This document shows, in pieces, positions 11,819 through 63,837 of a stretch of 64,000 nucleotides of DNA. The stretch is taken from IMG/VR virus record IMGVR_UViG_3300007169_000056. One strand, given 5' to 3'. The stretch is from a virus (Duplodnaviria > Heunggongvirae > Uroviricota > Caudoviricetes). A model generated the notes under the pieces. That model was not told where the DNA came from, made no database searches, and was given only the letters and a program-made list of their open reading frames with translations. Within the stretch, counting starts at the first letter, position 1. Each line of letters opens with the position of its first letter. A program made the translations under genes and the position numbers.

Positions 11819-13435
11819 TTAGTTTTTTGTTTCACAGTTAATTTCAACAACGAATGACCATATAGAAGATGGTGCTATTATTGAGTTTAGCATGAATTTT
11901 GCCGGAGTAGTTTCCGTTGGCCAGTTGGTGTGTTTTGAAATATACCATCCATTGCCTGAAGTAAAATTGCCAGGATGTGATACCGGAATTACTTTGATTG
12001 ACGATAGTGATAATTCGTTATTTTCAGCAAACCCAAATGGAAATTCGCTTAATGACAATGTTACAAATCCACTGTTTGTTGATCCGGGGTTGATTGATAC
12101 TTTTTTGGTTATTTTTGTAGCAAATCCACGATTGTTTCTTACGATGTAAGATTCAACAGAAGGATGAAACAGTTCTGGGATTTCAAACTTTTGACCCACA
12201 CCAAAGTCGGACAAATCGTTGTCGTTAAACACAAATCTTTCTATATTTGCACCACGTCCCAACCCTGATATTATAAATCTAGGCAATTCATCAAAACCGC
12301 TAGCTTCAAATGTGTTATTGATAAATGAAATGCTTTTGATTTTTGAGTTATTGGAAAATTTTATGATAGATTGATTAGCTTTCAATCCATTAAACTGGCA
12401 TCGTTCAAAACTAATTTCGTTTACTATTCCGTTCAAAATATCATTTTGAATATCAATCAGAGTGTCGTTCGCATTAAATATACAATCAGCAAAACAGATT
12501 TTTTTTGTTATATCAACAGATGTTGAACCGTTTTCACATCTACCGATAATAACATTCTGGAAAAAAACCTTTTCGTCGAATACTAGGTTTCTTATAGTAG
12601 TGTTTGTTGGCGACAGTTTGTATATGATTTTTGGTATACCGGGAAAACCTTGAGCACCCTGTGCGCCTTGAGCTCCTCCTGGCAACCCTTGTGGTCCACG
12701 GTCACCTTGTGGACCTTTATCACCAATTTGCCCTTTATCACCAACGGGTCCTTTATCACCATCAATTCCTTTGTCGCCGATGGGTCCTTTATCACCATCA
12801 ATACCATCTACGCCGTCTTTACCAGGCAAACCTTGTGCACCAATAAAACCTTGTGCACCAATAAAACCTTGCGGACCAATATCACCCTGTTCACCTTTGT
12901 CACCACGTTCACCTTTGTCGCCTGGTTCACCTTTGTCACCTTGTGGCCCTCTATATCCTTCTGGACCACCGGGTAGTCCTTGTGGCCCTATCAATCCTTG
13001 TGGACCTAAATCTCCCGGTTCGCCTTTGTCACCACGTTCGCCTTTGTCGCCTGGTTCGCCTTTGTCACCTTGCGGTCCTCTATATCCTTCTGGACCACCC
13101 GGAAGTCCTTGTGGACCACGATCTCCCAGTTCACCTTTGTCGCCTGGCTCACCTTTGTCACCTTGAATGCCTTTATCACCCTGTGGACCTTTAGCACCGC
13201 GATTTCCTACTAAATCACTGTCTATTATTTTGAATTTGTCGTCTTGAAAAACAACGACTCTAAAAGGATCTGAGTCATTTACAGGCGATGCACTAACGTT
13301 TTCACCAACTGGATATCCGTCTTTGTCGGTACGCATCAACAAATTAGCACCTTGAATCTCAACAGTTTTATTTGCTAAAACCTTATTGGTATCAGTGAAT
13401 TCTGCGTACTTTAACTGAGTTTTGATGATTGACAT
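11819..13435 (-). CDS. collagen-like tail fibre protein with a C-terminal non-collagen domain
   Basis: long Gly-X-Y tract (GPQGDKGEPGDKGERGDKGEPGD...), 538 aa. Confidence 0.7.
   Translation of the reverse strand: MSIIKTQLKYAEFTDTNKVLANKTVEIQGANLLMRTDKDGYPVGENVSASPVNDSDPFRVVVFQDDKFKIIDSDLVGNRGAKGPQGDKGIQGDKGEPGDKGELGDRGPQGLPGGPEGYRGPQGDKGEPGDKGERGDKGEPGDLGPQGLIGPQGLPGGPEGYRGPQGDKGEPGDKGERGDKGEQGDIGPQGFIGAQGFIGAQGLPGKDGVDGIDGDKGPIGDKGIDGDKGPVGDKGQIGDKGPQGDRGPQGLPGGAQGAQGAQGFPGIPKIIYKLSPTNTTIRNLVFDEKVFFQNVIIGRCENGSTSVDITKKICFADCIFNANDTLIDIQNDILNGIVNEISFERCQFNGLKANQSIIKFSNNSKIKSISFINNTFEASGFDELPRFIISGLGRGANIERFVFNDNDLSDFGVGQKFEIPELFHPSVESYIVRNNRGFATKITKKVSINPGSTNSGFVTLSLSEFPFGFAENNELSLSSIKVIPVSHPGNFTSGNGWYISKHTNWPTETTPAKFMLNSIIAPSSIWSFVVEINCETKN
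12890..13150. repeat. tandem duplication of about 130 bp inside the collagen-like gene
   Basis: caccacgttcacctttgtcgcctggttcacctttgtcacc...ggaccacc recurs 130 nt later; both protein copies read GPEGYRGPQGDKGEPGDKGERGDKGE. Confidence 0.7.
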
Positions 13436-33784: not shown

Positions 33785-34744
33785 ATGAAGGAAAAGACTG
33801 CTAAGCCCGCAGATGTGGGCGTTATTGTTGGCCGGTTTCAGGTCAACGAACTTCATGAGGCTCATATTGACCTCATCAATTCTGTTGCTCAGAAGCATGA
33901 TCGGGTGCTTCTTTTCTTGGGTAACAGCATCATCCGGAATACCACCTCTAATCCACTTGACTATCGGGCACGTCGTGCCATGATTGCTGACAAGTTTCCG
34001 AACGTCGAGGTGCATTACATCAATGATCATCCATCAGATGCTGTATGGTCTAAAAATCTTGACAAGCAGATCACAGAACAACTGCTTCCGCTTCAGACGG
34101 TTACACTGTATGGTAGCCGTGATAGTTTTCTCAAAGCATACAGCGGAAAGTTCAACGTATGTGAACTTGAGGCGACCACGTTTATCAGTGGTACCGAGGT
34201 TCGTCGTCGAGTTTGTAACAATTATCCTCCCACAGCTGACTATCGTGCCGGAATGATTGCAGCCACCGCATATCGTTATCCTACGGCGTTTCAGACTGTA
34301 GACATCGCTGTTGTGAACGACAAGCGAGAGATTCTGCTGGCCCGTAAGCCCGATGAAAAGAAGTGGCGATTCATTGGAGGTTTCAGCGATCCTCGTAGTC
34401 CATCGCTTGAGGCAGACGCAAAGCGTGAGGTAAGTGAGGAAGCCGGTATTGAAGTGGATGGCATTACGTATCTTGGATCTACGTTGATTGATGATTGGCG
34501 TTATCGTGGTGAACAGGACAAGATCAAGACTGCTCTGTTTGTTGCCAAGTATATGTACGGAAAGCCAGAGGGTGCTGATGACATTGCTGAAGTCAAGTGG
34601 GTTCCAATTGGTACCGGACTCAGCAAGGACAACGTTGAACCTCTTCACCATGTTTTGGTGGATATGTTCAACGATAAGTTTGGCGGAAATCGTGATCTTC
34701 AAGACAAGTTTTTTCAGCCAAATGTTGACGGTAATATGACTTAA
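33785..34744 (+). CDS. bifunctional NMN adenylyltransferase / Nudix hydrolase (NadM-Nudix type)
   Basis: N-terminal GRFQVNELHEAH cytidylyltransferase motif; C-terminal Nudix box GGFSDPRSPSLEADAKREVSEEAGIE. Confidence 0.7.
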   Translation: MKEKTAKPADVGVIVGRFQVNELHEAHIDLINSVAQKHDRVLLFLGNSIIRNTTSNPLDYRARRAMIADKFPNVEVHYINDHPSDAVWSKNLDKQITEQLLPLQTVTLYGSRDSFLKAYSGKFNVCELEATTFISGTEVRRRVCNNYPPTADYRAGMIAATAYRYPTAFQTVDIAVVNDKREILLARKPDEKKWRFIGGFSDPRSPSLEADAKREVSEEAGIEVDGITYLGSTLIDDWRYRGEQDKIKTALFVAKYMYGKPEGADDIAEVKWVPIGTGLSKDNVEPLHHVLVDMFNDKFGGNRDLQDKFFQPNVDGNMT

Positions 34745-35165: not shown

Positions 35166-36785
35166 ATGAATAAGTATAATATTGGTGACACTGTTATGAT
35201 TTCGACCGATTTGATGGATAATTCGGCGGGATCTATTAGACAAGTTGCAGAAGTGTTTCGTAACGACAATGTGGTTCGTTATTTGCTAACTGGTACTCGC
35301 GCTCTCTATAACGAGAATGAACTCACCCGACCTACCAAGAAGCAGATTGAAGACGCCAAGAATGGCAATTCGATCCGCAATGGATCGTTTGTCAAGAACA
35401 TTTGTTTGACTACAGATTCGTATAAGTTGAATCACTGGAATCAGTATCCCAAGGGCACCGAGAAGGTTTATAGTTACTTTGAGTGCCGTAAGGGTGCTAA
35501 GTTTGCTGAGACTCCGTTCTTCGGACTTCAGTATATTATCAAGAACCACCTTGAAGGCGTGGTTGTGACCCGCGAGAAGATTGAGAAGGCTGCCAAGTTG
35601 TGTAAGGCACATTTTGGTGACGAGAAGTATTTTAACCGTGAAGGTTGGGAGTACATTCTGAACAACTTTGGTGGTAAGTTGCCGGTTGTTATTAAGGCCG
35701 TTGAGGAGGGAACCGTGGTTCCTATCAACAATGTGTTGATGACTATTGAGAATACCGGTGGATGGGAAACCGCTTGGTTGACCAACTTCCTTGAGACGAT
35801 TTTGTCTCAGGTTTGGTATCCTATTACTGTGGCGTCTTTGTCCCGAGAAGTGAAGATGAATATCAAGGAGTATCTTGACCTCACTTCGGATGGTGGTCTT
35901 CTCAATTTCGGACTGCACGATTTTGGTTTCCGAGGCGCATCTTCGTGGGAGACTGCTGGTATTGGTGGTGCTGCCCACCTGATTAACTTCCTCGGCACCG
36001 ATACGGTTGTGGCTATGGAAGTGGCAATCAACTACTATAATGCCAACCTTGATGGTCTGGCGTATAGTGTGGCGGCTACCGAACACAGTGTTATGACTGC
36101 CCTTGGTAGGGATGGGGAGGTTGCTGTGGTTGAAAGTCTTCTCAATGAATATCCTACGGGTATTCTGTCTGTTGTTGCCGATAGTTACGACATTTATAAC
36201 TTTGTTGATAACATTGTTGGAAAGAAATTCAAGGATCGTATTTTGGCACGTAAGGGTGTGTTTGTGGTTCGTCCCGATAGTATCACTCCTACTCACCAGA
36301 CTCCCGAGGAGGAGATGGTGTGGATCATGGAATCCTTGTGGAAGAACTACGGTGGCACGGTGAACAGTAAGGGATATAAGTTGATCAATCCTTCTGTCCG
36401 TGTGTTGTGGGGTGACGGCATTGATCTTGATGGTATCAAGAAGATTCTGTATGCTGTTACCAAGGCGGGATTTGCCACGGAGAATATCGCTTGTTTTGGT
36501 ATGGGTGGGGGTCTTCTCCAGAAGGTCAATCGTGACACTCAACGCTGTGCTTTCAAGTGTAGTGCTCAGTACCGTGATGGTCAGTGGTATGACATTCAGA
36601 AGAATCCCAAGGACGTTTCTAAGGCTTCTAAGAAAGGTCGTCTCAAGTTGACTAAGGTTGATGGTAAGTTTGTTACTGTCAATGAAAACGATCCCGGTGA
36701 GGATTATTTGAAGGTTGTGTTTACGAATGGTGTGTTGGTCAAGGAAATTGATTTTGACACTGTTCGCAAGAACGCTGCTCTGTAA
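35166..36785 (+). CDS. nadV: nicotinamide phosphoribosyltransferase (NAMPT / NadV)
   Basis: 539 aa; GLHDFGFRGASS and other NAMPT-family motifs. Confidence 0.85.
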   Translation: MNKYNIGDTVMISTDLMDNSAGSIRQVAEVFRNDNVVRYLLTGTRALYNENELTRPTKKQIEDAKNGNSIRNGSFVKNICLTTDSYKLNHWNQYPKGTEKVYSYFECRKGAKFAETPFFGLQYIIKNHLEGVVVTREKIEKAAKLCKAHFGDEKYFNREGWEYILNNFGGKLPVVIKAVEEGTVVPINNVLMTIENTGGWETAWLTNFLETILSQVWYPITVASLSREVKMNIKEYLDLTSDGGLLNFGLHDFGFRGASSWETAGIGGAAHLINFLGTDTVVAMEVAINYYNANLDGLAYSVAATEHSVMTALGRDGEVAVVESLLNEYPTGILSVVADSYDIYNFVDNIVGKKFKDRILARKGVFVVRPDSITPTHQTPEEEMVWIMESLWKNYGGTVNSKGYKLINPSVRVLWGDGIDLDGIKKILYAVTKAGFATENIACFGMGGGLLQKVNRDTQRCAFKCSAQYRDGQWYDIQKNPKDVSKASKKGRLKLTKVDGKFVTVNENDPGEDYLKVVFTNGVLVKEIDFDTVRKNAAL

Positions 36786-38866: not shown

Positions 38867-39373
38867 ATGAGTGAAGAATCCAAAGAGTTCCGAAATGTTC
38901 ATTCCGCCAAGTTTTATCTCAACATTTACGTTGAACGTGGGCGTGATCTACGAGTAATTCGCAATATTCCAATTGATGAGATCGGACGTTTTGATGTGTG
39001 GCAATGTGTTTTTGAGAAGGAGCCAGAAGCATATCGGGAGCTTTGTGTCAAAGAATGGTATAATGATAACCTTAAATCGTCAGACAACGATGATGTAAAC
39101 AAATTCCGGTTGGAGTTCTCTGTTTACAGACTTATTCAACTTGAAGAATGGAACACTTCATTTACCGTGCAAGATGCGATTAAGATCATTTTTGATTGTT
39201 ATGGAACAGAGTGTTTGCCATTTCTCATTGAAAAAGCAGAAAAATGTGTGGAATCTCGAAAAGAAATTGTCAAGCCATATTACAAGCCCGACAACGAATG
39301 GGTTGGGTTTGCAGAAAGAGTATTAGAAAAATTGAAACAGTATGAACGACACTACACAGAAAAGGACCATTGA
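38867..39373 (+). CDS. hypothetical protein
   Basis: ORF only. Confidence 0.4.
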   Translation: MSEESKEFRNVHSAKFYLNIYVERGRDLRVIRNIPIDEIGRFDVWQCVFEKEPEAYRELCVKEWYNDNLKSSDNDDVNKFRLEFSVYRLIQLEEWNTSFTVQDAIKIIFDCYGTECLPFLIEKAEKCVESRKEIVKPYYKPDNEWVGFAERVLEKLKQYERHYTEKDH

Positions 39374-39485
39374 CGATGTTTGTGGTCAACCGAAAGGATC
39401 ATTTCAGAAGTTTTTACAAACGATTGAACTTGAAAACAAGCAATCCGAAGAACGAAGATCAGAAAGAATCAGAAAGCATATCAAT

Positions 39486-40268
39486 ATGAAGAATTTGTCA
39501 AACGAAATTGTGCAGTGGATCAAGGATTATGCCACCAAAAACAACCGTAAGTCGCTGGTCGTGGGTGTATCGGGTGGTGTGGACAGTGCGCTTGTGAGCA
39601 CTCTGTGTGCCATGACAGGTCTACCTACGCATTGTGTAGTGATGCCGTGTCAGACCAAGACAGATCAAACGGATCGTGGTAACAAGCACATTGAATGGCT
39701 TCGCAGCAAATTTGATAATGTTTACTACGAGTGTGTAGACCTTACCAACACGTTTGAAGCGTTTCAACGTGTGACCACCACTTGCTATCACAATAAATTG
39801 GGCTATGCCAACAGCAAGAGTCGGCTTCGCATGGTAACTTTGTATCAGATTGCCACGGCTACTAACGGTTTGGTTGTTGGAACCGGCAACAAGGTTGAAG
39901 ATTTTGGTGTGGGTTTCTTTACCAAATATGGTGACGGTGGTGTGGACATCAGCCCTATTGGAGATCTGCTCAAGAGCGAAGTGCGAACCATGTGTCGTGC
40001 TTTGGGAGTTCTTCCAGAACTTAGTGAAGCTGTTCCTACCGATGGACTGTGGGACGATACTCGTACCGACGAGGATCAAATTGGTGCTACGTATGACGAA
40101 TTGGAATGGGCTATGGAGTTTTTTGAATCAAACGATCCAGGCGACATTCATTTGTGGGGAGGCGAAGTGACCACTCGTCAGCGTGAAGTTCTTGCCATTT
40201 ACGACAAGTGGCACAATGCTGGTGCTCACAAATTGGCCCCAATTCCAGTCTTTGTGCGAAATGCGTAA
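39486..40268 (+). CDS. nadE: NH3-dependent NAD+ synthetase
   Basis: PP-loop SGGVDSALVSTLC; FFTKYGDGGVDISPIGDLLKSEV and the C-terminal region align with NadE; maximal ORF starts at 39342 but 39486 gives the canonical length. Confidence 0.75.
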   Translation: MKNLSNEIVQWIKDYATKNNRKSLVVGVSGGVDSALVSTLCAMTGLPTHCVVMPCQTKTDQTDRGNKHIEWLRSKFDNVYYECVDLTNTFEAFQRVTTTCYHNKLGYANSKSRLRMVTLYQIATATNGLVVGTGNKVEDFGVGFFTKYGDGGVDISPIGDLLKSEVRTMCRALGVLPELSEAVPTDGLWDDTRTDEDQIGATYDELEWAMEFFESNDPGDIHLWGGEVTTRQREVLAIYDKWHNAGAHKLAPIPVFVRNA

Positions 40269-41503: not shown

Positions 41504-42067
41504 ATGAACTACGAAAAAGAAAAGTTGATTGAACGTGCAGAAATTCTTGGCGTATACGATATTGCATCAGTAGTTATTGCAGATCCACGTTTTGAATTGT
41601 GGAGTGGGTCTAGCAAACCTGAACAACACCACTATGGTAAGGGTGGTCTACTTAGACATACGCATGAAGTGGTTGAGTTGTGTATTACCAATTGTAGTCT
41701 GTTGCAACTAAATATCGATCAGGTAGAGTTGTATTTGAGTGCATTGTTTCATGATTGTGGTAAGATGTGGGATTATGAACCAGTTGATTCGATTATGAAT
41801 TCTTGGCGTAGCACCGAACACAAACGATTGATTCATCACATCAGTCGTAGTGCATTGGTTTGGAATAGTGCGTGTACATTTCGCCGGCTTAAGTATGGTA
41901 ATTATGCGGATAGTGTCACACACAACATTTTGTCCCACCATGGACATCGTGAATGGGGTAGTCCTGTGATGCCAAAGACGAAGGCAGCATGGTTGTTGCA
42001 TTTGTGTGATGGTATTAGTGCTAGAATGAATGACGCAGACAAATGTGATTTTGTAAAGAAAGTATGA
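41504..42067 (+). CDS. HD-domain phosphohydrolase
   Basis: HTHEVVE and LFHDCGK (H...HD) metal-binding motifs. Confidence 0.5.
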   Translation: MNYEKEKLIERAEILGVYDIASVVIADPRFELWSGSSKPEQHHYGKGGLLRHTHEVVELCITNCSLLQLNIDQVELYLSALFHDCGKMWDYEPVDSIMNSWRSTEHKRLIHHISRSALVWNSACTFRRLKYGNYADSVTHNILSHHGHREWGSPVMPKTKAAWLLHLCDGISARMNDADKCDFVKKV

Positions 42068-42462: not shown

Positions 42463-43038
42463 ATGAACGACTATATTTGTCATAGTGGTGGATGTGAAGG
42501 TGCTGACATGGGTTGGGAGGAAATTGGGTATCACTATAATGTCAAAACCATTGCATATAGTTTTTACAATCATCGACAGCACGGTCGAAACCAAAAGATC
42601 TTGACCTCTGAAGAACTTCAAGAAGGATATTCTGCTGCAAGAATTGCTAGTAGATCCATCGGCAGACCTTTTGATACAATTCAATATCCATACATCAAAA
42701 ATCTATTGGCACGAAACTGGTTTCAAGTCAAGAACAGTGAGGCAATTTTTGCAATTGCCAAAAGTTTTTTGACCAATACAATTGTTGAAGGAGGAACTGG
42801 TTGGGCCGTTCAAATGGCAATTGATTGTGACAAACCGGTATATGTGTGGGTTCCCGATGCATCGTGCTTTACTGGAGGATATTGGTGTAGATATAAGCCG
42901 GTTGTGGGATTTGAAGGCATGCGTGGTGAGATTCCGAAGTTAACCAAGAATTTTGCTGGTATTGGAACGAGAGATTTGACCGACGCTGGTTTAGCAGCAA
43001 TTGCAGAAGTGTATAAAAATACGTTTGGGGATATATAA
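42463..43038 (+). CDS. SLOG-superfamily Rossmann-like protein (YpsA/DprA/LOG-like)
   Basis: N-terminal glycine-rich HSGGCEGADMGW and second GGTGWAVQ motif, as in SLOG/LOG nucleotide-binding domains. Confidence 0.35.
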   Translation: MNDYICHSGGCEGADMGWEEIGYHYNVKTIAYSFYNHRQHGRNQKILTSEELQEGYSAARIASRSIGRPFDTIQYPYIKNLLARNWFQVKNSEAIFAIAKSFLTNTIVEGGTGWAVQMAIDCDKPVYVWVPDASCFTGGYWCRYKPVVGFEGMRGEIPKLTKNFAGIGTRDLTDAGLAAIAEVYKNTFGDI

Positions 43039-51845: not shown

Positions 51846-52361
51846 ATGAGTAATTTATTAAAACATGCTGAACGTGAACTGTCTCTCATTGGTTATGACG
51901 GTACAGATGAATATGATAATACAGCAAAAAAGGCTATATTAGAACTAATAGAAACATTTGCCAAACAAGGTCACAGCGGATTTAGCGCTGGTTACGTGGT
52001 AAGTCTTTTCAACAAACTGGCAAGATATGAGACATTATCTCCATTGACTGGTAATGATGATGAATGGAATGAAATACTCGACAATCAACCTCAACACGGA
52101 GTTTTGTTTCAAAATAATAGAAACAGTGCTGTTTTTAAAACAGACGGTGGATGTTATTATATTGATGCTATTGTGTGGATTGACGAAACCGGATGTAGCT
52201 TCACCAATGGAAGAAGCCGAGGATATATCAAGTCGTTTCCATTCACACCCAAAACGTTTTATGTACATGTAGATGCAAATGATGTCGTCATAGACACCGA
52301 AGAACATCAGAAAGCTCTCGACTATTATCACCATGAACAAAACGTTGGAAAAGTTTTGTGA
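51846..52361 (+). CDS. hypothetical protein
   Basis: ORF only. Confidence 0.4.
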   Translation: MSNLLKHAERELSLIGYDGTDEYDNTAKKAILELIETFAKQGHSGFSAGYVVSLFNKLARYETLSPLTGNDDEWNEILDNQPQHGVLFQNNRNSAVFKTDGGCYYIDAIVWIDETGCSFTNGRSRGYIKSFPFTPKTFYVHVDANDVVIDTEEHQKALDYYHHEQNVGKVL

Positions 52362-54451: not shown

Positions 54452-54709
54452 ATGAAACCAGACAAAGAAGGATTGTGGGAATGGACCGACGACAACGGAG
54501 ACGTTCGTGTCGTAAACGTCATTGACGTTGGACATGACAGTCCGTGGTTGAGGGTGTATTATCTTGGTGGATACTACAATGTTCACGACGAATGTATTGG
54601 AACTCCCGACGAGGAATATTCAAAAGCAGAATGGCCAGATCGTTGGGGTCGTTACTTGGGAACGCTCGAAAGCATTCCTCTTGAAGAAACTTACGGTGGA
54701 ATTTTATGA
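54452..54709 (+). CDS. small hypothetical protein
   Basis: start trimmed. Confidence 0.35.
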   Translation: MKPDKEGLWEWTDDNGDVRVVNVIDVGHDSPWLRVYYLGGYYNVHDECIGTPDEEYSKAEWPDRWGRYLGTLESIPLEETYGGIL

Positions 54710-55107
54710 CTGACAAAGTAAAACAAGTTATTGTAATTCGTACCGATCTTCGCAATAGTCAAAATAAAAAAGTTAGAACTGGCAAATTGATTGCACAAGC
54801 CTGTCATGCTAGTATTGCTTTTCTAAGCAACCGAATCAGAAAAAATTTTGGATTGCCAATTCCTTTATCCAAAGCAGAAATGCAATGGATCGAAGGATCT
54901 TTCTTCAAAGTTTGTGTCGGTGTTGATACCGAACAAGAATTGCTTGACATTTTGGAAAAAGCCCGTACACTGGGTGTAGAGTGTAATCTGATTACCGACC
55001 AAGGACATACTGAATTTAATGGTGTTCCTACCAACACTTGTTTGGCTTTGGGACCAGATTACAGCAGCAAAATTGATACTATTACGGGACATCTTAAACT
55101 ACTATAA
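54706..55107 (+). CDS. peptidyl-tRNA hydrolase, PTH2 family
   Basis: VIVIRTDLRNSQNKKVRTGKLIAQACHAS N-terminus and C-terminal LITDQGHTEFNGVPTNTCLALGPD match PTH2. Confidence 0.6.
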   Translation: MTDKVKQVIVIRTDLRNSQNKKVRTGKLIAQACHASIAFLSNRIRKNFGLPIPLSKAEMQWIEGSFFKVCVGVDTEQELLDILEKARTLGVECNLITDQGHTEFNGVPTNTCLALGPDYSSKIDTITGHLKLL

Positions 55108-56180: not shown

Positions 56181-57161
56181 ATGAACAATCTTAAAATCTT
56201 CAGTGGTACCAGCAACATTCCTCTTGCACAAAAAATTGCCGGTAATCTTCTCACCAATCTAGGTGAGATCTATCATCACACGTTTCCTTCTGGTGAATCG
56301 TATTGTCAGTTTAAGGAAAATATTCGCGGCAGCGATGTGTTTTTGATTCAATCTATCAGTCAACCTGCTAATGAAAATCTGATGCAGCTTTTGATTATGG
56401 CTGACGCTGCTAGACGTGCCAGCGCAGATCGTATCACGGCCGTGATTCCATATTTTGGATACAGCAGACAGGACCGTAAGGACAAAAGCAGAGTGCCTAT
56501 CAGTGCCAAGTTGGTGTTGGACCTGTTTGAAGCAAGTGGCATTGACCGTGTGGTTACCATGGATCTTCATAGTCCACAGGTAGGTGGGTTCACCAATTTG
56601 CCATTTGATCATCTTACATTTGAACCCGTATTGATTGATCATATCAAGTCGTATGGTGTCAATGTCAAGGATATTATCATTATGGCGCCTGACGTTGGTG
56701 CTGTAAAGCGTGCTGAAAAGTATGCTAGTTATTTGAAATGTGACTTTGGTTTTATCTCCAAGAAGCGAATTGGTGATGAACAGGTCGAATTGCAGAGTAT
56801 TTCAGGTAATGTTCAGGACAAACACGTATATCTTATCGATGATCTTACTGAATCGTGTGGCACTTTGATTCAGGCGGGCGCAGCGTGTAAGAAAAATGGT
56901 GCCCGTAGGGTTGTTGGTGCTGTAACGCATGGTTGTTTTACTGAGACCGGCATGGAAAGACTGTCAGCAGCAATGCCACACCCTAATTTGTTGGAACAAA
57001 ATCCGTCTATCGACGAATTTATTCACAGCAACAGTGTTAATCACTGGTGGAAAAACAAGTACAAGCCAAGCGATATTGTATCGTTGGATGTTAGCAGTTT
57101 GTTTGCCAAAGCAATCAATAGTATTCATAAAAACGAAAGTGTTAGTGAATTGTTTGTATGA
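56181..57161 (+). CDS. prs: ribose-phosphate pyrophosphokinase family (Prs; ADP-ribose pyrophosphokinase-like alternative not excluded)
   Basis: KIFSGTSNIPLAQKIA, NENLMQLLIMADAARRASA, ITAVIPYFGYSRQDRK and DDLTESCGT PRPP loop; start trimmed to MNNLKIF. Confidence 0.8.
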   Translation: MNNLKIFSGTSNIPLAQKIAGNLLTNLGEIYHHTFPSGESYCQFKENIRGSDVFLIQSISQPANENLMQLLIMADAARRASADRITAVIPYFGYSRQDRKDKSRVPISAKLVLDLFEASGIDRVVTMDLHSPQVGGFTNLPFDHLTFEPVLIDHIKSYGVNVKDIIIMAPDVGAVKRAEKYASYLKCDFGFISKKRIGDEQVELQSISGNVQDKHVYLIDDLTESCGTLIQAGAACKKNGARRVVGAVTHGCFTETGMERLSAAMPHPNLLEQNPSIDEFIHSNSVNHWWKNKYKPSDIVSLDVSSLFAKAINSIHKNESVSELFV

Positions 57162-59230: not shown

Positions 59231-59635
59231 ATGAACACTCTTAAAATTGGAGTCGCTTGTGTTTTGTTGGATCGAGACAACAATGTTTGGCTTAGCCAAC
59301 GACTTGGACCCTACCAGACCGGAAAATACGCATGTCCGGGTGGCATGGTTGATCTAACCGATACGAATGATGTAGTTGCAATTCGACGAGAAATCTTAGA
59401 AGAAACTGGCATCAATATTGTAGATACAACCAGATTCAAGCGTAGTATTAAATCATATCATCCGGGTGGCAAAAGTGATATTACACAATGGTTTCTTTTA
59501 ATCTTGAAACCATCTGAAACACCTGTTAATCTGGAGCCTACAAAACATGGCGATTGGAAAAAGTATTCGTTAACGGATGCTAAGCTATTGCCATTAATGG
59601 TCAGTACCAACGAAGTATTGGACACACTAAAATGA
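59231..59635 (+). CDS. Nudix hydrolase
   Basis: Nudix box GGMVDLTDTNDVVAIRREILEETGI. Confidence 0.65.
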   Translation: MNTLKIGVACVLLDRDNNVWLSQRLGPYQTGKYACPGGMVDLTDTNDVVAIRREILEETGINIVDTTRFKRSIKSYHPGGKSDITQWFLLILKPSETPVNLEPTKHGDWKKYSLTDAKLLPLMVSTNEVLDTLK

Positions 59636-59756
59636 ATCTAAAATGGGTAGAAGAAATCAAACCAGTATTGGAATTACAAGAATTCCTTGACGGTATGATA
59701 GAACTTGGCAAAAAAGAACAGGGAATTGTATCATGGGAGTGGTGGATGGAGGAACA

Positions 59757-60146
59757 ATGAAATATCTATGTGAATGTGGCAAATTGGCTACATGGAGTTA
59801 CATGCCCAGCACGAGCAAACCCATTTACGGATATTATTGTGACGATTGTGTCCCCCGTGGATGCAGTTGCAATGAAGAATATACTGTAAAAAGTCCACAG
59901 GCTCACGAAAACGGTTACGGTGAAGATCCTCCACAAGATGGAGCCAGATATTGGAAGTGGATTGACAAGGACATTCGTTGGGCATATACTGACAACAAAG
60001 GAAGAGAACTTCCGTGTATCGAGTTTTTGCAGTCCGAAGACGGATATGAGGTCGAAAACGAAGAAACAACATACTTTGATACACACAACGTAAAATACTA
60101 TACAACAAACGATAATGAAAGAAGTATATCTGGTAACCCGAGGTAG
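59757..60146 (+). CDS. zinc-finger hypothetical protein
   Basis: GGAGGA SD; CECGK ... CDDC ... CSC. Confidence 0.4.
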   Translation: MKYLCECGKLATWSYMPSTSKPIYGYYCDDCVPRGCSCNEEYTVKSPQAHENGYGEDPPQDGARYWKWIDKDIRWAYTDNKGRELPCIEFLQSEDGYEVENEETTYFDTHNVKYYTTNDNERSISGNPR

Positions 60147-60573
60147 TTACAGTGATTATAGCGTATGTGGAGTGTTTGCTGACAAAGATTTAGCGACTGA
60201 ATATGCTGAACAATTGACAGGTCGATGGGATAATGCTCGAGTTGAGACACGTCAGTTGCGTACAAGTGTAGATGACCTGAGGGCTCCTATCGGATTCAGG
60301 GCATATGAAGTTAATATGGACCAAGATGGTAATTCACATTATCATCGTGATGAAATTACTGGCGAGTACAAAGACAGAGATGGATATGAGGAACTTGATT
60401 GTTCCAATAATAATGGCACATATACAAAAACAGGTCGTTATGTTTTTTACATTGTAACTGACAAGGGCGAAGAAGGTGCAATCAAGATTGCAAATGAGCG
60501 TCGTATTCAGATGATTGCAAATGGAACGTGGCCCAAGAAAACAGATGTATATGATCAATCCAAACTATTTTGA
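60115..60573 (+). CDS. hypothetical protein
   Basis: ORF only. Confidence 0.4.
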   Translation: MKEVYLVTRGSYSDYSVCGVFADKDLATEYAEQLTGRWDNARVETRQLRTSVDDLRAPIGFRAYEVNMDQDGNSHYHRDEITGEYKDRDGYEELDCSNNNGTYTKTGRYVFYIVTDKGEEGAIKIANERRIQMIANGTWPKKTDVYDQSKLF

Positions 60574-61114
60574 AGTAACTCCAGATCCTAGCACACATCC
60601 GATTCGCAAAAATCCAGAGCATGTCAAGAAAAACTACTTTGGTGTGTTGAACGTGTCGGATACTCCGTGCATGACTTTTGATTTTGCCACACATGGTATT
60701 TTGTCACTGTGGTTTCCTATTCATGAAGTCGGGCAGTGGGGGTATAGTCCATTTTATGGAGCGGCTAAATTTCTTGATCATAAACTAGCGAGTGGTGATG
60801 AACGTCCTATTTTGTTACATTGTCATGCTGGTGTAAATCGTTCTGTTTGTGTAGCATATGCTGTTCTTAAATCTGTTGAATCTACACAATCGGAAATTGA
60901 TCATAAATTAGAAATTGGAGAAGGATTGCCAAATTTATTTCAAATCAACATAAATAAAGGTTATATTCCTTCGGATGTAATTGATTTCTTAAAAGCCAGA
61001 CATCAATGTCCAACTTACGGAATCCATGGGTTGCTTGCATCTTCTGGAAGCGAACATACGTTTTATCACAAAAACGGCAAACCCAATCTGAAATTCAAAG
61101 GAGTGTCTATATGA
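60545..61114 (+). CDS. dual-specificity / tyrosine-type protein phosphatase (Cys-based)
   Basis: CX5R P-loop HCHAGVNRS. Confidence 0.6.
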   Translation: MYMINPNYFEVTPDPSTHPIRKNPEHVKKNYFGVLNVSDTPCMTFDFATHGILSLWFPIHEVGQWGYSPFYGAAKFLDHKLASGDERPILLHCHAGVNRSVCVAYAVLKSVESTQSEIDHKLEIGEGLPNLFQININKGYIPSDVIDFLKARHQCPTYGIHGLLASSGSEHTFYHKNGKPNLKFKGVSI

Positions 61115-61416
61115 AGCTTGAATTTATCAAAGATAGTTCTGAGTTGAACGAGTTTACAAAAACCCTCAAATGGAAAGATAGTGTAGATTTTGAGGGTGAT
61201 TTGGATGATTGTCACGCATTTCAATCAATCTTTTTGCAAGAATCTACTGGCAAATACTATATGGTTGAAATGTATCGCGGTGGCGGAGTCTATAATAGAG
61301 CCGACTATGTTTCGTATCACCGAAACTTCAAAACAAGTGAACCTTATGTGGTTTCATTTCATGAAGTAAAACCAGTTGAAGTTGTTAGAACAGTGTGGAA
61401 AGATGTAGAAAGCTAA
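61111..61416 (+). CDS. small hypothetical protein
   Basis: ATGA overlap start trimmed from a longer ORF. Confidence 0.35.
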   Translation: MKLEFIKDSSELNEFTKTLKWKDSVDFEGDLDDCHAFQSIFLQESTGKYYMVEMYRGGGVYNRADYVSYHRNFKTSEPYVVSFHEVKPVEVVRTVWKDVES

Positions 61417-61423
61417 GAATCAT

Positions 61424-61948
61424 ATGAACATTGAAGACACGAAAAATTTCGCAGGAAAAAACTTGACCACTGATACCCACATTTATTTCTGGACAAATTG
61501 GTTGAGCAATTTCAAGGTATGTAAAATAACCGATCCACTGATTCGTATTTCGTTTAATACGACCGAACAAGCCTACATGTGGCGAAAAGCCTACTTTTTT
61601 GGTGATGAAGATACCATGAAAAAATTGGAAAATGCTGATCTGACTCCCAGAGAAGCAAAAAACTTGGGCAGAGAAGTGGTAGGCTATAACGACGATTTGT
61701 GGGGGTGTGTCCGATATGGATACATGGTGTATGTCAACTATTTGAAGTACACACAAAACGATGACTTGAAAAAGAAACTTTTGGATACCGGTGAAAAAGT
61801 TCTTGTAGAAGCATCACCTTATGATAAAATCTGGGGAGTCGGTTTTTCAGCCGACAACCCGCTTATTTTGGACGACAAAAATTGGACCGGACAAAATTTG
61901 CTTGGCAAAGCACTAATGGATGTTCGTAAAAAACTTGCAAACGCATGA
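61424..61948 (+). CDS. NADAR (YbiA-like, DUF1768) domain protein
   Basis: DLWGCVRYGYM ... EASPYDKIWGVGFSADNP matches NADAR conserved blocks. Confidence 0.5.
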   Translation: MNIEDTKNFAGKNLTTDTHIYFWTNWLSNFKVCKITDPLIRISFNTTEQAYMWRKAYFFGDEDTMKKLENADLTPREAKNLGREVVGYNDDLWGCVRYGYMVYVNYLKYTQNDDLKKKLLDTGEKVLVEASPYDKIWGVGFSADNPLILDDKNWTGQNLLGKALMDVRKKLANA

Positions 61949-62412
61949 AAACTTGGAAAACCATCATTGAAAATACACTACAGCAAAAAAAGGCCCGAGG
62001 TTGGACCAAATTGTATTGGTGTATTGACCTACATGACACTGTAATCACTGGTACATACAATCGTCACAACGATGGTTCCAAAATTTTTCCATACGCCAAA
62101 GAAACATTGGATTGGTTGTTTAATCAACCAGATCATTCAACTATCTTGTGGACAAGCAGTTACACCGATTCAGCCAATGAAGTGTGTAATCGATTTGACC
62201 TGAAGTTTCACTACTTTAACGTTAATCCCGAGTGTCCAAACACTGGCATTTGTGATTTTGAACGTAAACTTTATTTCAATTTTCTACTCGACGACAAGGC
62301 TGGATTTGATCCACAATACGATTGGAGAGAAATCTATGAAACCTTGACCAACACGTCTGTATTTATGTCAAACAAACAAAAACGTTTTTGTGAAGACATT
62401 CACGGACCTTAA
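61945..62412 (+). CDS. hypothetical protein (weak HAD / 5-prime-nucleotidase-like N-terminus)
   Basis: WCIDLHDTVITG only loosely resembles HAD motif I. Confidence 0.3.
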   Translation: MKTWKTIIENTLQQKKARGWTKLYWCIDLHDTVITGTYNRHNDGSKIFPYAKETLDWLFNQPDHSTILWTSSYTDSANEVCNRFDLKFHYFNVNPECPNTGICDFERKLYFNFLLDDKAGFDPQYDWREIYETLTNTSVFMSNKQKRFCEDIHGP

Positions 62413-62415
62413 CAT

Positions 62416-62634
62416 ATGAGTGCTGATCCGTTCCGAGACATTGTAAAACAAAATGCACATTTGTACAGGGACAGTGAAGATGCACGTGTAAAAAATACAG
62501 AAAGAAAATGTATAGAATACATTGAGTGGAAAAAACTCAATGATGTTTACCAAAACGCCAAAAAGTCTCTTGAATACACAGAACAATTATATGAAAAAGA
62601 ACATCGAATATATCGAAGCACCAAATTACAATGA
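62416..62634 (+). CDS. small hypothetical protein
   Basis: ORF only. Confidence 0.3.
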   Translation: MSADPFRDIVKQNAHLYRDSEDARVKNTERKCIEYIEWKKLNDVYQNAKKSLEYTEQLYEKEHRIYRSTKLQ

Positions 62635-63151
62635 TCCTAGGGATCATACATGTACTGTTTTTCTGGGAGGAGGAATTACCAACTGCAAAGATTGGCAAAA
62701 GGATTTGGTTTCTCGTCTACAAGTGTCAGATGAAAAAATGCGTCTGTATAATCCACGTCGAGAAAATTTCGATCTGGCAAACCCAAAAGAGTCTGAAATT
62801 CAGATTGATTGGGAACACCATTATCTAAATATGTGTGACATTTTGGTGTTTTATTTTTCAGAGGAAACGTTGTGTCCAATTACGTTGTTTGAACTAGGTG
62901 GTGCATTGGAAAGGAATCTTCACATTGAGCCATATTATGGCTGTCGCAGGCAAAAGATTCTTGTGTATTGTGACCCCGAGTACAAACGCAAGTTTGATGT
63001 AAATTACCAGATTGGTCTGGTTCGAAAATTAGAGGCGACTATGTATAACTATGGAGAATTTGTATATAGTTATGAAACCTATGGGGAATTTGTAGAGGGT
63101 TTGATGAACCAGATTCGTATTCACAATGAAAAATATAGAAAGATGATTTAA
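62591..63151 (+). CDS. nucleoside 2-deoxyribosyltransferase-like protein (Nuc_deoxyrib_tr / DNPH1 fold)
   Basis: N-terminal VFLGGGITN and C-terminal TLFELGGALE resemble the family AGP..F and ELGyA blocks. Confidence 0.4.
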   Translation: MKKNIEYIEAPNYNDPRDHTCTVFLGGGITNCKDWQKDLVSRLQVSDEKMRLYNPRRENFDLANPKESEIQIDWEHHYLNMCDILVFYFSEETLCPITLFELGGALERNLHIEPYYGCRRQKILVYCDPEYKRKFDVNYQIGLVRKLEATMYNYGEFVYSYETYGEFVEGLMNQIRIHNEKYRKMI

Positions 63152-63795
63152 TGAAAGTGAAAGTTTACAACGACAGTAGCGTGAAGAATTTTGTTTCAAG
63201 TGATTGGCATTTGGGACATCGAAAAGATTTCATTTGGGCTAAGCGTGGTTATAGTTCCGTCGAGGAACATGACCGAGCCGTTATTGCCAAAGTGAATGAA
63301 CTTGTTGGTCCGGATGACAACTTGTTTTATCTCGGTGATTTTTGTTTGAATACAAACGAGGAACGATTTGAGTCATATTTGAATCAAATTACTTGTCAGA
63401 ACATTCATTTGATCTGGGGTAATCATCCTAATCCGATTCGCAAGGTTTATGACCGTTTAGTTGCAGAATGGTATGGACCTAATATTGATGTGTATCCGCT
63501 CAGATATCGTAACCTTAACATTCTTGGATATCACTATGAATGTGTGATTCAAGGTAAGTACGTAGTGTTCAATCATTTTCCTATCAGCGTATGGGAAAAC
63601 ATGAAAGACGGTGCATACATGTTGTGTGGTCACAGTCATTATAGCTATCCAGACACACGCATTGAGTCGCATAACGGCTTAACGTTGGATTGTGGATGGG
63701 ATGGACATGCCCGTCCTCTTTTGTTTGACGAAGTAATTCGGATTATGAATCAAAAGAAGATCCGACAAGTTGATCATCACGTAAAGAATCTGTAA
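63151..63795 (+). CDS. calcineurin-like metallophosphoesterase
   Basis: SDWHLGH, LGDFCLN, WGNHP and GHSH motifs. Confidence 0.6.
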   Translation: MKVKVYNDSSVKNFVSSDWHLGHRKDFIWAKRGYSSVEEHDRAVIAKVNELVGPDDNLFYLGDFCLNTNEERFESYLNQITCQNIHLIWGNHPNPIRKVYDRLVAEWYGPNIDVYPLRYRNLNILGYHYECVIQGKYVVFNHFPISVWENMKDGAYMLCGHSHYSYPDTRIESHNGLTLDCGWDGHARPLLFDEVIRIMNQKKIRQVDHHVKNL

Positions 63796-63801
63796 ACAAC
63801 A

Positions 63802-63837
63802 CCCCCACTTATAATAATTTGTGGGGGATTTTTTTGC
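63802..63837 (+). terminator. rho-independent terminator
   Basis: cccccacttataataatttgtggggg hairpin followed by a T-run. Confidence 0.85.

Follow-up and report, generated by a model that had tools for sequence, protein, structure and literature searches.

We analysed a 64,000-nucleotide stretch of the IMG/VR virus record IMGVR_UViG_3300007169_000056 (Caudoviricetes), called the window below, with attention to a gene cluster near its 3' end (positions 59231-63836, plus strand). The source is a large (jumbo) phage with a contig of about 290 kb, and a long array of genes in one direction fills the whole window. Between 59231 and 63795 the plus strand holds 11 closely packed open reading frames (ORFs), the majority of them overlapping. 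Its named members are a predicted Nudix hydrolase, a cysteine phosphatase of the dual-specificity phosphatase fold (DSP), a NADAR protein, a capless HAD-like protein, a PF15891 protein (NDT2) and a calcineurin-type metallophosphoesterase (MPE). We argue that this cluster is probably the accessory arm of an extended phage neighbourhood for NAD+ salvage and ADP-ribose (ADPR) recycling.

The genes named in a first-pass annotation of this DNA were all found on the plus strand, with the same starts, and its six domain calls agree with matches in Pfam, NCBIfam or PHROGs combined with checks of conserved residues. Among the profile searches that it proposed, PF08719 backed NADAR and PF00293 backed Nudix. 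The stand-alone Nudix protein has MutT-like proteins as its nearest solved structures, one of them named an ADPR pyrophosphatase, through weak matches (PDB, NCBIfam). The NADAR protein scores 128.9 bits against TIGR02464, over the NCBIfam cut-off, which assigns it to the YbiA, or riboflavin-intermediate N-glycosidase, type; it also aligns with PDB entry 8bau (3.9e-20), the EQ...K motif being kept in the alignment. Its residues E48 and K55 are spaced by 7 residues, equal by residue count to E36 and K43 of AdfN from phage T4 (PMC11825919).

The deoxyribosyltransferase-like identity of NDT2 held through PF15891 (68.1 bits vs a cut-off of 30), which all 113 of 113 homologues carry, and failed for PF05014, to which there was no match at E<=0.1. 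Pfam and a profile search of the PDB gave no significant match to any characterised member, and the sole match in the latter is 4mcj, an uncharacterised structure. An alignment of 49 homologues has 18 invariant columns, among them E101 in the sequence PITLFELG. This invariant glutamate in an ...ELG motif resembles the catalytic nucleophile motif of DNPH1 and NDT.

Each of the three candidate phosphatases keeps its nucleophile or metal residues. Only two libraries saw the HAD-like protein, namely NCBIfam (BT0820 family, 6e-9) and PHROGs. It has a Rossmannoid HAD fold, with motif I reading DLHDT: D28 is invariant, the position two residues on is histidine (invariant in A2; aspartate in 4/21 more distant homologues), and D31 and T32 follow. 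Motifs II to IV (S/T, K108 and DD116-117) are conserved. The structural neighbours of its model are small sugar-bisphosphate phosphatases, one of them a phage pentose-1,5-bisphosphate phosphatase. For the DSP and the MPE the first-pass calls are borne out by motifs and not by Pfam. The DSP scores 27.2 bits against Pfam DSPc, under the gathering cut-off, while its HCX5R(S/T) P-loop is present as HCHAGVNRS; H92, C93 and R99 are invariant, as is E61, which aligns with the upstream general acid D92 of VHR. The MPE has no Pfam match and keeps all five calcineurin motifs (DxH, GD, GNH, H, GHxH), with D18, H20, G62, D63, G90, N91, H92, H142, G160, H161 and H163 invariant in 11 diverse homologues. With their nucleophile or metal residues invariant, NDT2, DSP, HAD and MPE are all putatively competent catalysts.

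The cluster is closed by a hairpin that the first-pass annotation had called a strong terminator, and that is real both by sequence (CCCCCAC, a 12-nt loop, GTGGGGG and a T7 tail) and by folding (-18 kcal/mol, z -3.85, with 0/200 shuffles as stable).

Further upstream, the window carries genes to rebuild NAD+ (Table 1). Two phage NAD+ reconstitution pathways, NARP1 and NARP2, were described by Osterman et al. (bioRxiv 10.1101/2024.02.11.579819); NARP2 consists of NAMPT and NMNAT, for example NadV/NatV of Vibrio phage KVP40. In the window, NadV aligns with solved NAMPTs at 427 bits and is 89-91% identical to the NadV of a group of related phages (L019-L037; L numbers denote the loci compared here). 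Its ORF is 539 aa long vs 464-465 aa in those relatives, and similarity begins near residue 77, so that for the first ~75 codons (35166-35390) the choice is between an N-terminal extension and a start called too far upstream. The NMNAT-Nudix fusion groups with the NMNATs of related loci in phmmer searches, and its N-terminus matches CTP_transf_like weakly (18.4 bits vs a cut-off of 21). Prs can be aligned from end to end, at 231 bits, with the phosphoribosyl pyrophosphate (PRPP) synthetases (PRPS) of B. subtilis and human; we considered whether it could be the Adps of NARP1 and rejected this because of that strong full-length alignment. Since Prs is not Adps and the NAMPT is not Namat-like, the core is of the NARP2 type with its own PRPP supply.

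Table 1. Predicted genes and features of the cluster and of the NAD+ salvage and counter-defence genes elsewhere in the window.
Feature	Coordinates	Strand	Evidence
NMNAT-Nudix fusion (NadM/NatV type), predicted adenylyltransferase step	33785..34744	+	NUDIX 1.7e-12
NadV/NAMPT, nicotinamide phosphoribosyltransferase	35166..36785	+	NAMPT_N 3e-39, NAPRTase 3e-44
NadE, NAD synthetase	39342..40268	+	NAD_synthase 4.3e-49
HD-domain phosphohydrolase	41504..42067	+	PF01966 8.2e-6; phrog_5889
SLOG/DprA-like protein	42463..43038	+	phrog_768 (DprA-like) 7.5e-16; no Pfam match
Tad3 homologue, type I Thoeris inhibitor	51846..52361	+	PF25185 6.9e-38, above cut-off
PTH2-family hydrolase	54706..55107	+	PF01981 1.3e-29
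Prs, canonical class-I PRPP synthetase	56181..57161	+	Pribosyltran_N 1.1e-51 and Pribosyl_synth
Nudix hydrolase, small stand-alone, MutT-type	59231..59635	+	PF00293 7.7e-14
42-aa ORF	59632..59760	+	ORF list; called as gene in L001
Cys-rich protein, 130-137 aa	59754..60146	+	Conserved in close relatives only
DUF7336-containing protein	60115..60573	+	PF24024 3.2e-7
DSP-fold Cys-phosphatase (DSP)	60545..61114	+	HCHAGVNRS motif
101-aa protein	61111..61416	+	Close relatives only; no Pfam or PHROGs match
Predicted NADAR N-glycosidase	61424..61948	+	PF08719 2.5e-45
Predicted capless (C0) HAD-fold phosphatase, BT0820 type	61945..62412	+	Motif I DLHDT
72-aa ORF, overlaps NDT2 start	62416..62634	+	Present in L009, absent from L010 and L011
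NDT2, PF15891 (Nuc_deoxyri_tr2 / DrHyd-type) putative N-glycosidase/transferase	62591..63151	+	PF15891 1e-18
MPE, calcineurin-type metallophosphoesterase	63151..63795	+	phrog_547 8e-39
Intrinsic terminator-like hairpin, T7 tail	63802..63836	+	Sequence and folding

The cluster had been described as a terminal operon with its start at 59231, and neither boundary held. Near-identical contigs run on in the same strand with genes for a 110-aa and a 70-aa protein, DUF6445 and GT2, and in the relative L009, whose NDT2 is 83% identical, a second GT2 gene and a Macro gene lie further downstream; the cluster seemed terminal because the window ends there. At the other end no operon start is evident, the genes being co-directional and tightly packed from at least Prs (56181). 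Rather than a self-contained operon, the cluster forms the distal part of a more extended neighbourhood for NAD+ salvage.

Comparison with relatives separates a conserved block from its variable surroundings. A near-identity DNA search of the cluster against 50,697 phage records returned just a 40-bp chance match. Relatives with NDT2 83%, 66% and 53% identical present Prs, a few genes, and then the order Nudix-(DSP)-NADAR-HAD-NDT2, and in L009-L011 the small ORFs, DSP, MPE and flanks vary around this block; MPE and DSP are absent from some relatives in the comparisons with L010 and L011. In these last two the stop codon of HAD overlaps the start of NDT2, suggestive of co-translation. The near-identical contig L005 has a 465-bp (155-codon) in-frame deletion, equivalent to window positions 60630-61094, which removes nearly the whole DSP gene. 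In L001, about 1 kb with a NUMOD3 homing-endonuclease gene (L001 6080-7072) replaces 65 bp (window 62684-62748) at the NDT2 5' end, and just beyond the insertion lies a diverged copy of the sequence coding for the NDT2 N-terminus. The Cys-rich protein of the cluster has no family match in Pfam, PHROGs or NCBIfam. L009, L018 and L025 have a Macro gene some 5 kb downstream of NDT2; in the window itself a phmmer search seeded with Macro gave no homologue.

The phages with NadV 89-91% identical (L019-L037) carry NMNAT-NadV-PTH2-Prs-HAD-NDT2-MPE contiguously within about 5 kb. In the window, then, about 19 kb of other genes divides the two halves of what these relatives carry as one cluster. Several phage lineages (L019, L021, L023, L030, L033) share a PTH2 gene placed between NadV and Prs.

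NDT2, the HAD-like protein and the DSP were each taken in turn as an independent anchor for neighbourhood comparisons. Single-protein scans of IMG/VR gave NDT2 and DSP no close relatives, and alignments were needed as queries. With the alignment of 49 homologues as anchor, 80 viral loci of 216 NDT2-encoding viral stretches were dereplicated to 62 clusters, whose neighbours were typed by phmmer with few seeds, so that the counts are a lower bound. A NAD-salvage or Prs gene lies within 10 kb of NDT2 in 27/62 clusters and within 2.5 kb in 17/62. By a rough binomial, NadV is close to NDT2 more often than its background predicts (p ~6e-8 at 10 kb, ~8e-7 at 2.5 kb). The gene orders are of at least nine distinct kinds and include Prs-NDT2-NadV, NMNAT-NDT2-NadV, PncB-NDT2, NADAR-NDT2-Prs, NMNAT-Nudix-NDT2-NadV-Prs-HAD-NADAR and Nudix-NadE-NMNAT-PncA-NDT2. 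The same families emerge from an unbiased ranking: all-vs-all clustering of the ORFs within 7 kb of NDT2 put forward Prs (18 loci), NadV (16), NADAR (14), HAD-like (10), MPE (10) and NMNAT (8 + 5), and otherwise only antisense shadow ORFs rank high. The MPE is found in 10/62 NDT2 neighbourhoods. Sinorhizobium phage Phosso provides another order, NadE-PncB-Nudix-NMNAT-PncA-x-NDT2.

The other two families lead back to NAD genes as well. Taken as an independent anchor, the HAD-like protein (40 clusters) has NadV as a neighbour in 14, NMNAT in 14 and Prs in 10, with NDT2 in only 4. The DSP anchor recovered NMNAT-DSP-NadV (L262), Prs-DSP (L264/265) and the array NADAR-PTH2-Prs-Nudix-DSP-HisPhos-HAD-MPE-Macro; tblastn with DSP against the phage collection gave no match. 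In L211 and L213 (the L213 cluster comprises 17 loci) the HAD-like gene is 1.1-1.2 kb from a homologue of the SLOG/DprA-like protein and not from NDT2, an arrangement in which HAD would partner either of two related Rossmannoid N-glycosidase-type folds.

The Prs-like neighbours of NDT2 fall into two groups. The first is canonical, 37-83% identical to the window Prs. The second is short and divergent (22-26% identical), with a paired NadV-like gene about 33% identical and no NMNAT nearby. In L046, L080 and L084 (at ~9.2-12 kb of each locus) NDT2 lies between such a divergent PRPS-like gene and the NadV-like gene (33% identical), again with no NMNAT near. This layout resembles NARP1, with NDT2 in the position that the Macro-domain ADPR-1''-P phosphatase Adpp takes in NARP1-AP, which consists of Adps, Adpp and Namat (bioRxiv 10.64898/2026.01.28.702374); 'Adps-like' is here an unconfirmed label.

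PF15891 also occurs in Deinococcales, Chloroflexota, cyanobacteria, Bdellovibrionota and DPANN archaea, and 41/80 cellular NDT2 loci have NAD-related neighbours. Of the two loci annotated closely, that on the 5-Mb Deinococcales chromosome OZ252252.1 presents NrtR-NADAR-PARG (microbial)-NDT2-PnuC-NadR (L111 5584-10014), an operon that links two de-ADP-ribosylating enzymes and NDT2 to nicotinamide-riboside salvage, and a Woesearchaeota contig presents PncB-PncA-NadE-Nudix-x-NDT2. Tunturiibacter phage Tunturi_5 encodes, beside the portal gene, a 1262-aa protein with an N-terminal PF15891 domain followed by an ART-PolyVal ADP-ribosyltransferase domain (L007 5989-9777), which may be a virion-packaged polyvalent protein. 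Together with Phosso and Tunturi_5, the cellular operons extend the link between PF15891 and NAD well beyond shared descent in one phage lineage.

Because these enzymes recur beside NAD+-rebuilding genes in phages, bacteria and archaea, the cluster most likely helps to recycle broken-down NAD+ under host defence. This bears out the secondary proposal of the first-pass annotation, that ADPR is fed back to the upstream NAD genes, through the adjacency of NDT2, HAD and DSP to Prs, NadV and NMNAT and the presence of NDT2 in cellular NAD operons. The enzyme identities, folds, conserved catalytic residues and recurrent NAD-gene neighbours are as described above; the substrates and the order of the steps we infer as follows. 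The phage core is of the NARP2 type (NAMPT and the NMNAT-Nudix fusion), complemented by NadE and a dedicated canonical Prs. Host NADases would split NAD+ into nicotinamide and ADPR or ADPR derivatives; a Nudix activity would convert ADPR into AMP and ribose-5-phosphate, Prs would turn ribose-5-phosphate into PRPP, NadV would join PRPP and nicotinamide into nicotinamide mononucleotide (NMN), and NMNAT would complete the last step to NAD+. The accessory enzymes would broaden the range of breakdown products able to feed this loop. NADAR and PF15891 would act on N-glycosidic bonds, by cleavage or exchange, with ADP-ribosylated guanine in DNA, N-linked ADPR derivatives, NMN and AMP as candidate substrates, yielding ADPR from adducts or nicotinamide and ribose-5-phosphate from nucleotides. 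HAD, DSP and MPE could dephosphorylate, for example, ADPR-1''-P, 2'-phospho-ADPR or ribose-1,5-bisphosphate.

Several observations weigh against this proposal. The substrates named for PF15891, HAD and the Cys-phosphatase are guesses, and an activity cleaving NMN or AMP beside NadV would risk a futile cycle. In HAD motif I, histidine replaces the usual second aspartate (DLHDT and not DxDxT), so that simple phosphatase chemistry is not assured. The L005 deletion makes DSP dispensable in a natural, near-identical relative, and some 19 kb separates the NMNAT-NadV pair of the window from Prs. For the phage NADARs tested to date, the one activity established by experiment is on DNA, the removal of ADP-ribose from guanine, and not on metabolites (PMC11825919, PMC11125620). 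About half of the viral NDT2 loci have no seed-family neighbour, typing with few seeds being again a lower bound, and the binomial for the proximity of NadV to NDT2 takes its background from the NadV frequencies that were published for large phages (PMC9503650) and an assumed genome of >=100 kb, with no matched control. Finally, dCMP deaminase is directly beside NDT2 in 4/62 clusters, of which L012, L014 and L038 have no NAD gene detected near NDT2 and L095 has NadV and NMNAT 6-7 kb away; in two further clusters the deaminase is about 9-10 kb away. Such contexts fit a general (deoxy)nucleotide role.

A bolder form of the salvage proposal is possible, and we hold it tentatively: that PF15891, the BT0820-type HAD and the DSP, with NADAR and Nudix, perform uncharacterised NAD+ recycling steps common to phages, bacteria and archaea, and that in phages they make up an extended reconstitution pathway, channelling non-standard NAD+ cleavage products into Prs/NadV/NMNAT or, in the NARP1-like contigs, into Adps/Namat. 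Among these products would be phosphorylated ADPR, pentose bisphosphates and N-linked ADPR species, either signals or adducts. If this is true, the phage would overcome NADase defences that plain NARP1 or NARP2 cope with poorly, and the reaction of PF15891 would be one so far assigned to no gene family, the candidates being N-ribohydrolysis or base exchange of pyridine nucleotides and hydrolysis of N-glycosidic ADPR derivatives.

The first-pass annotation had favoured another role, the destruction of defence signals. In its full form, the enzymes would degrade cyclic ADPR isomers, His-ADPR, N7-cyclic ADPR and cyclic oligonucleotides or oligoadenylates, silencing Thoeris, CBASS, Pycsar and type III CRISPR, with NAD+ recycling at most a by-product. 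Thoeris is a relevant pressure for this phage, as seen by the presence of Tad3, and the chemistry is conceivable: N-glycosidases such as NADAR and PF15891 could in principle open N-linked cyclic ADPR species, and phosphoesterases can cleave cyclic nucleotides. RyDEP couples signal cleavage to NAD+ refuelling (bioRxiv 10.64898/2026.05.28.727677), NDT2 takes the place of the NARP1-AP accessory phosphatase between divergent PRPS-like and NadV-like genes in some contigs, and Iyer et al. made the same proposal for the NADAR, Nudix and SLOG proteins of phages (PMC9503650). However, the idea found no specific support at this locus. None of ten cluster proteins matched Acb1, Apyc1, ring nucleases, RyDEP or another signal-degrading family in the general libraries of Pfam, PHROGs and NCBIfam; the tightest neighbours are biosynthetic (Prs, NadV, NMNAT) and not sponges or inhibitors; Deinococcales and DPANN archaea carry the same NDT2/NADAR/Nudix set in chromosomal operons for NAD salvage, outside any conflict context; and the NADARs tested act on guanine-ADPr (PMC11125620). 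Taken together, we regard signal destruction as unlikely.

Somewhat more doubtful still is a dedicated defence against DNA ADP-ribosylation, in which an AdfN-type NADAR would strip DarT1-type ADP-ribose from guanine in phage DNA while Nudix and the phosphatases dispose of ADPR or are unrelated. The NADARs of T4, Bas32 and Bas60, which are all the phage NADARs tested, reverse guanine ADP-ribosylation and counter DarTG1 (PMC11825919), and every NADAR subfamily tested hydrolyses G-ADPr in vitro (PMC11125620). The window NADAR retains the pair of glutamate and lysine, and the Deinococcales NADAR adjoins PARG, another de-ADP-ribosylase. On the other hand, the window protein scores as YbiA-type, and YbiA gave no protection from DarT1 in cells (PMC11125620); moreover, this explanation accounts for one gene of eleven and leaves the linkage of NADAR to Prs, NadV and NDT2 unexplained. 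Released ADPR would enter the loop, which makes an AdfN-type role compatible with salvage.

It is improbable that the cluster is no functional unit at all, only unrelated accessory genes in a variable region of a jumbo phage whose shared order reflects common descent. The gene content is fluid indeed, as seen in the L005 deletion, the L001 homing endonuclease and the small ORFs confined to close relatives; some relatives lack MPE and DSP, and a single co-directional array covers the entire window. Yet NAD genes stay close by in at least nine gene orders, in phages as in bacteria and archaea, and the unbiased ranking of neighbours yields the same few families.

About as improbable is a role in remodelling of the (deoxy)nucleotide pool, DNA modification or RNA-end repair, with NDT2 hydrolysing or exchanging the bases of (d)NMPs together with dCMP deaminase and the phosphatases being nucleotidases or RNA-end healers: the four clusters with an adjoining deaminase, the glycosyltransferases and DUF6445 just downstream in near-identical contigs, the RNA ligase, Thg1 and PTH2 nearby in relatives, the adjacency of the MPE family to RNA ligase in some phages and some fold resemblances speak for it, but within 10 kb of NDT2 NAD genes are found in 27 clusters vs 6 for dCMP deaminase, the HAD and DSP anchors likewise return NAD genes, and among the ORFs profiled in the window, which were not all of them, none next to the cluster was an RNA ligase, KptA or sirtuin.

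The window contains other genes of note. Tad3 binds and directly inhibits the Thoeris TIR protein ThsB (PMC13402655), and its location about 7 kb upstream of the cluster means that the phage combines a Thoeris inhibitor with genes for NAD+ salvage. The HD and SLOG-like genes reported at 41.5-43.0 kb were both recovered, HD by Pfam and the SLOG-like gene by phrog_768 without a Pfam match. Collagen triple-helix repeats (PF01391, 4.8e-29) mark the 538-aa product of one of the few genes on the minus strand (11819-13435). No tRNA genes were found in the window.

NAD+ depletion is among the commonest bacterial anti-phage strategies, and the phage pathways that reconstitute NAD+ (NARP1, NARP2, NARP3, NARP1-AP, RyDEP) are emerging one enzyme at a time. 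This locus points to PF15891, the capless HAD and the DSP-fold phosphatase as families genomically tied to NAD+ salvage in phages, bacteria and archaea. It offers a few well-defined proteins, with candidate substrates, that may reveal new steps of NAD+ and ADPR recycling and new counter-defence activities. It also advises caution before every phage cluster of Nudix, NADAR and phosphoesterase genes is read as a destroyer of immune signals.

Compared with known systems, the closest core is NARP2, a pathway that uses PRPP and nicotinamide; the window encodes its two defining enzymes, NAMPT in canonical form and NMNAT as a fusion to Nudix (the adenylyltransferase half being weak in Pfam). The window differs by adding a dedicated PRPS, NadE, Nudix, DSP, NADAR, HAD, PF15891 and MPE, and by the ~19 kb between the core pair and Prs with the cluster. 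NARP1 has a different core: the window is without its pair of Namat and an adjoining Adps, a divergent PRPS-like enzyme that lacks the regulatory modules, the window's Prs (231 bits) and its NadV, 19 kb away, being canonical. Accessory enzymes that feed NARP1 have precedents in Adpp (bioRxiv 10.64898/2026.01.28.702374) and RyDEP (bioRxiv 10.64898/2026.05.28.727677). The likeness to NARP1-AP lies in the principle that an accessory enzyme within a NAD-reconstitution operon turns an unusable NAD+ cleavage product into a pathway substrate, and in the three-gene layout that some NDT2 loci share with it, NDT2 being placed between divergent PRPS-like and NadV-like genes; in the window, however, Prs and NadV are canonical, Macro is absent and the accessory enzymes are of other folds.

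In bacteria, the NrtR-regulated prs-nadV(-nadM) operons (Rodionov et al. 2008, PMC2330246) likewise commit a PRPS paralogue to nicotinamide salvage and link the system to Nudix-family proteins and ADPR, whereas the phage has no NrtR, its Nudix has no winged helix, and NADAR, PF15891 and HAD members are not described there (PMC2330246). AdfN, the anti-DarTG1 phage NADAR (PMC11825919), shares with the window protein the fold, the conserved glutamate and lysine and the stand-alone form; the YbiA-type score and the metabolic gene context of the latter differ, and its activity on DNA is putative. For NDT, DNPH1 and the MilB-BlsM N-ribohydrolases the likeness lies in the fold for which PF15891 is named and in the ...ELG glutamate, there being no significant match to PF05014 or a characterised member. 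CD38, of the same broad superfamily, performs base exchange on NMN (PMC11903787), and is the only precedent that the literature on NMN nucleosidase genes provided.

Iyer, Burroughs, Anantharaman and Aravind reported in 2022 that NADAR, Nudix, SLOG and Macro co-occur in large phages, with NADAR beside NadM/NadV (PMC9503650). The earlier statement that no phage operon of this composition is described thus fails for NADAR and Nudix with NadM/NadV and stands for the PF15891, HAD and DSP links, which were not found in the searchable literature; that literature yielded no paper on PF15891 and none linking a deoxyribosyltransferase-like protein to NadV or NrtR. In the same work viruses are said to carry only ARC-type DrHyd domains, Prs and PRPP are not mentioned (PMC9503650), and degradation of signals or toxins is favoured over salvage; the links to PF15891, the capless HAD and the DSP are additional here. 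Phage NAD+ reconstitution with accessory enzymes is a known kind of system, to which this locus adds accessory families, and a breadth of association, that as far as we have searched were not described before.

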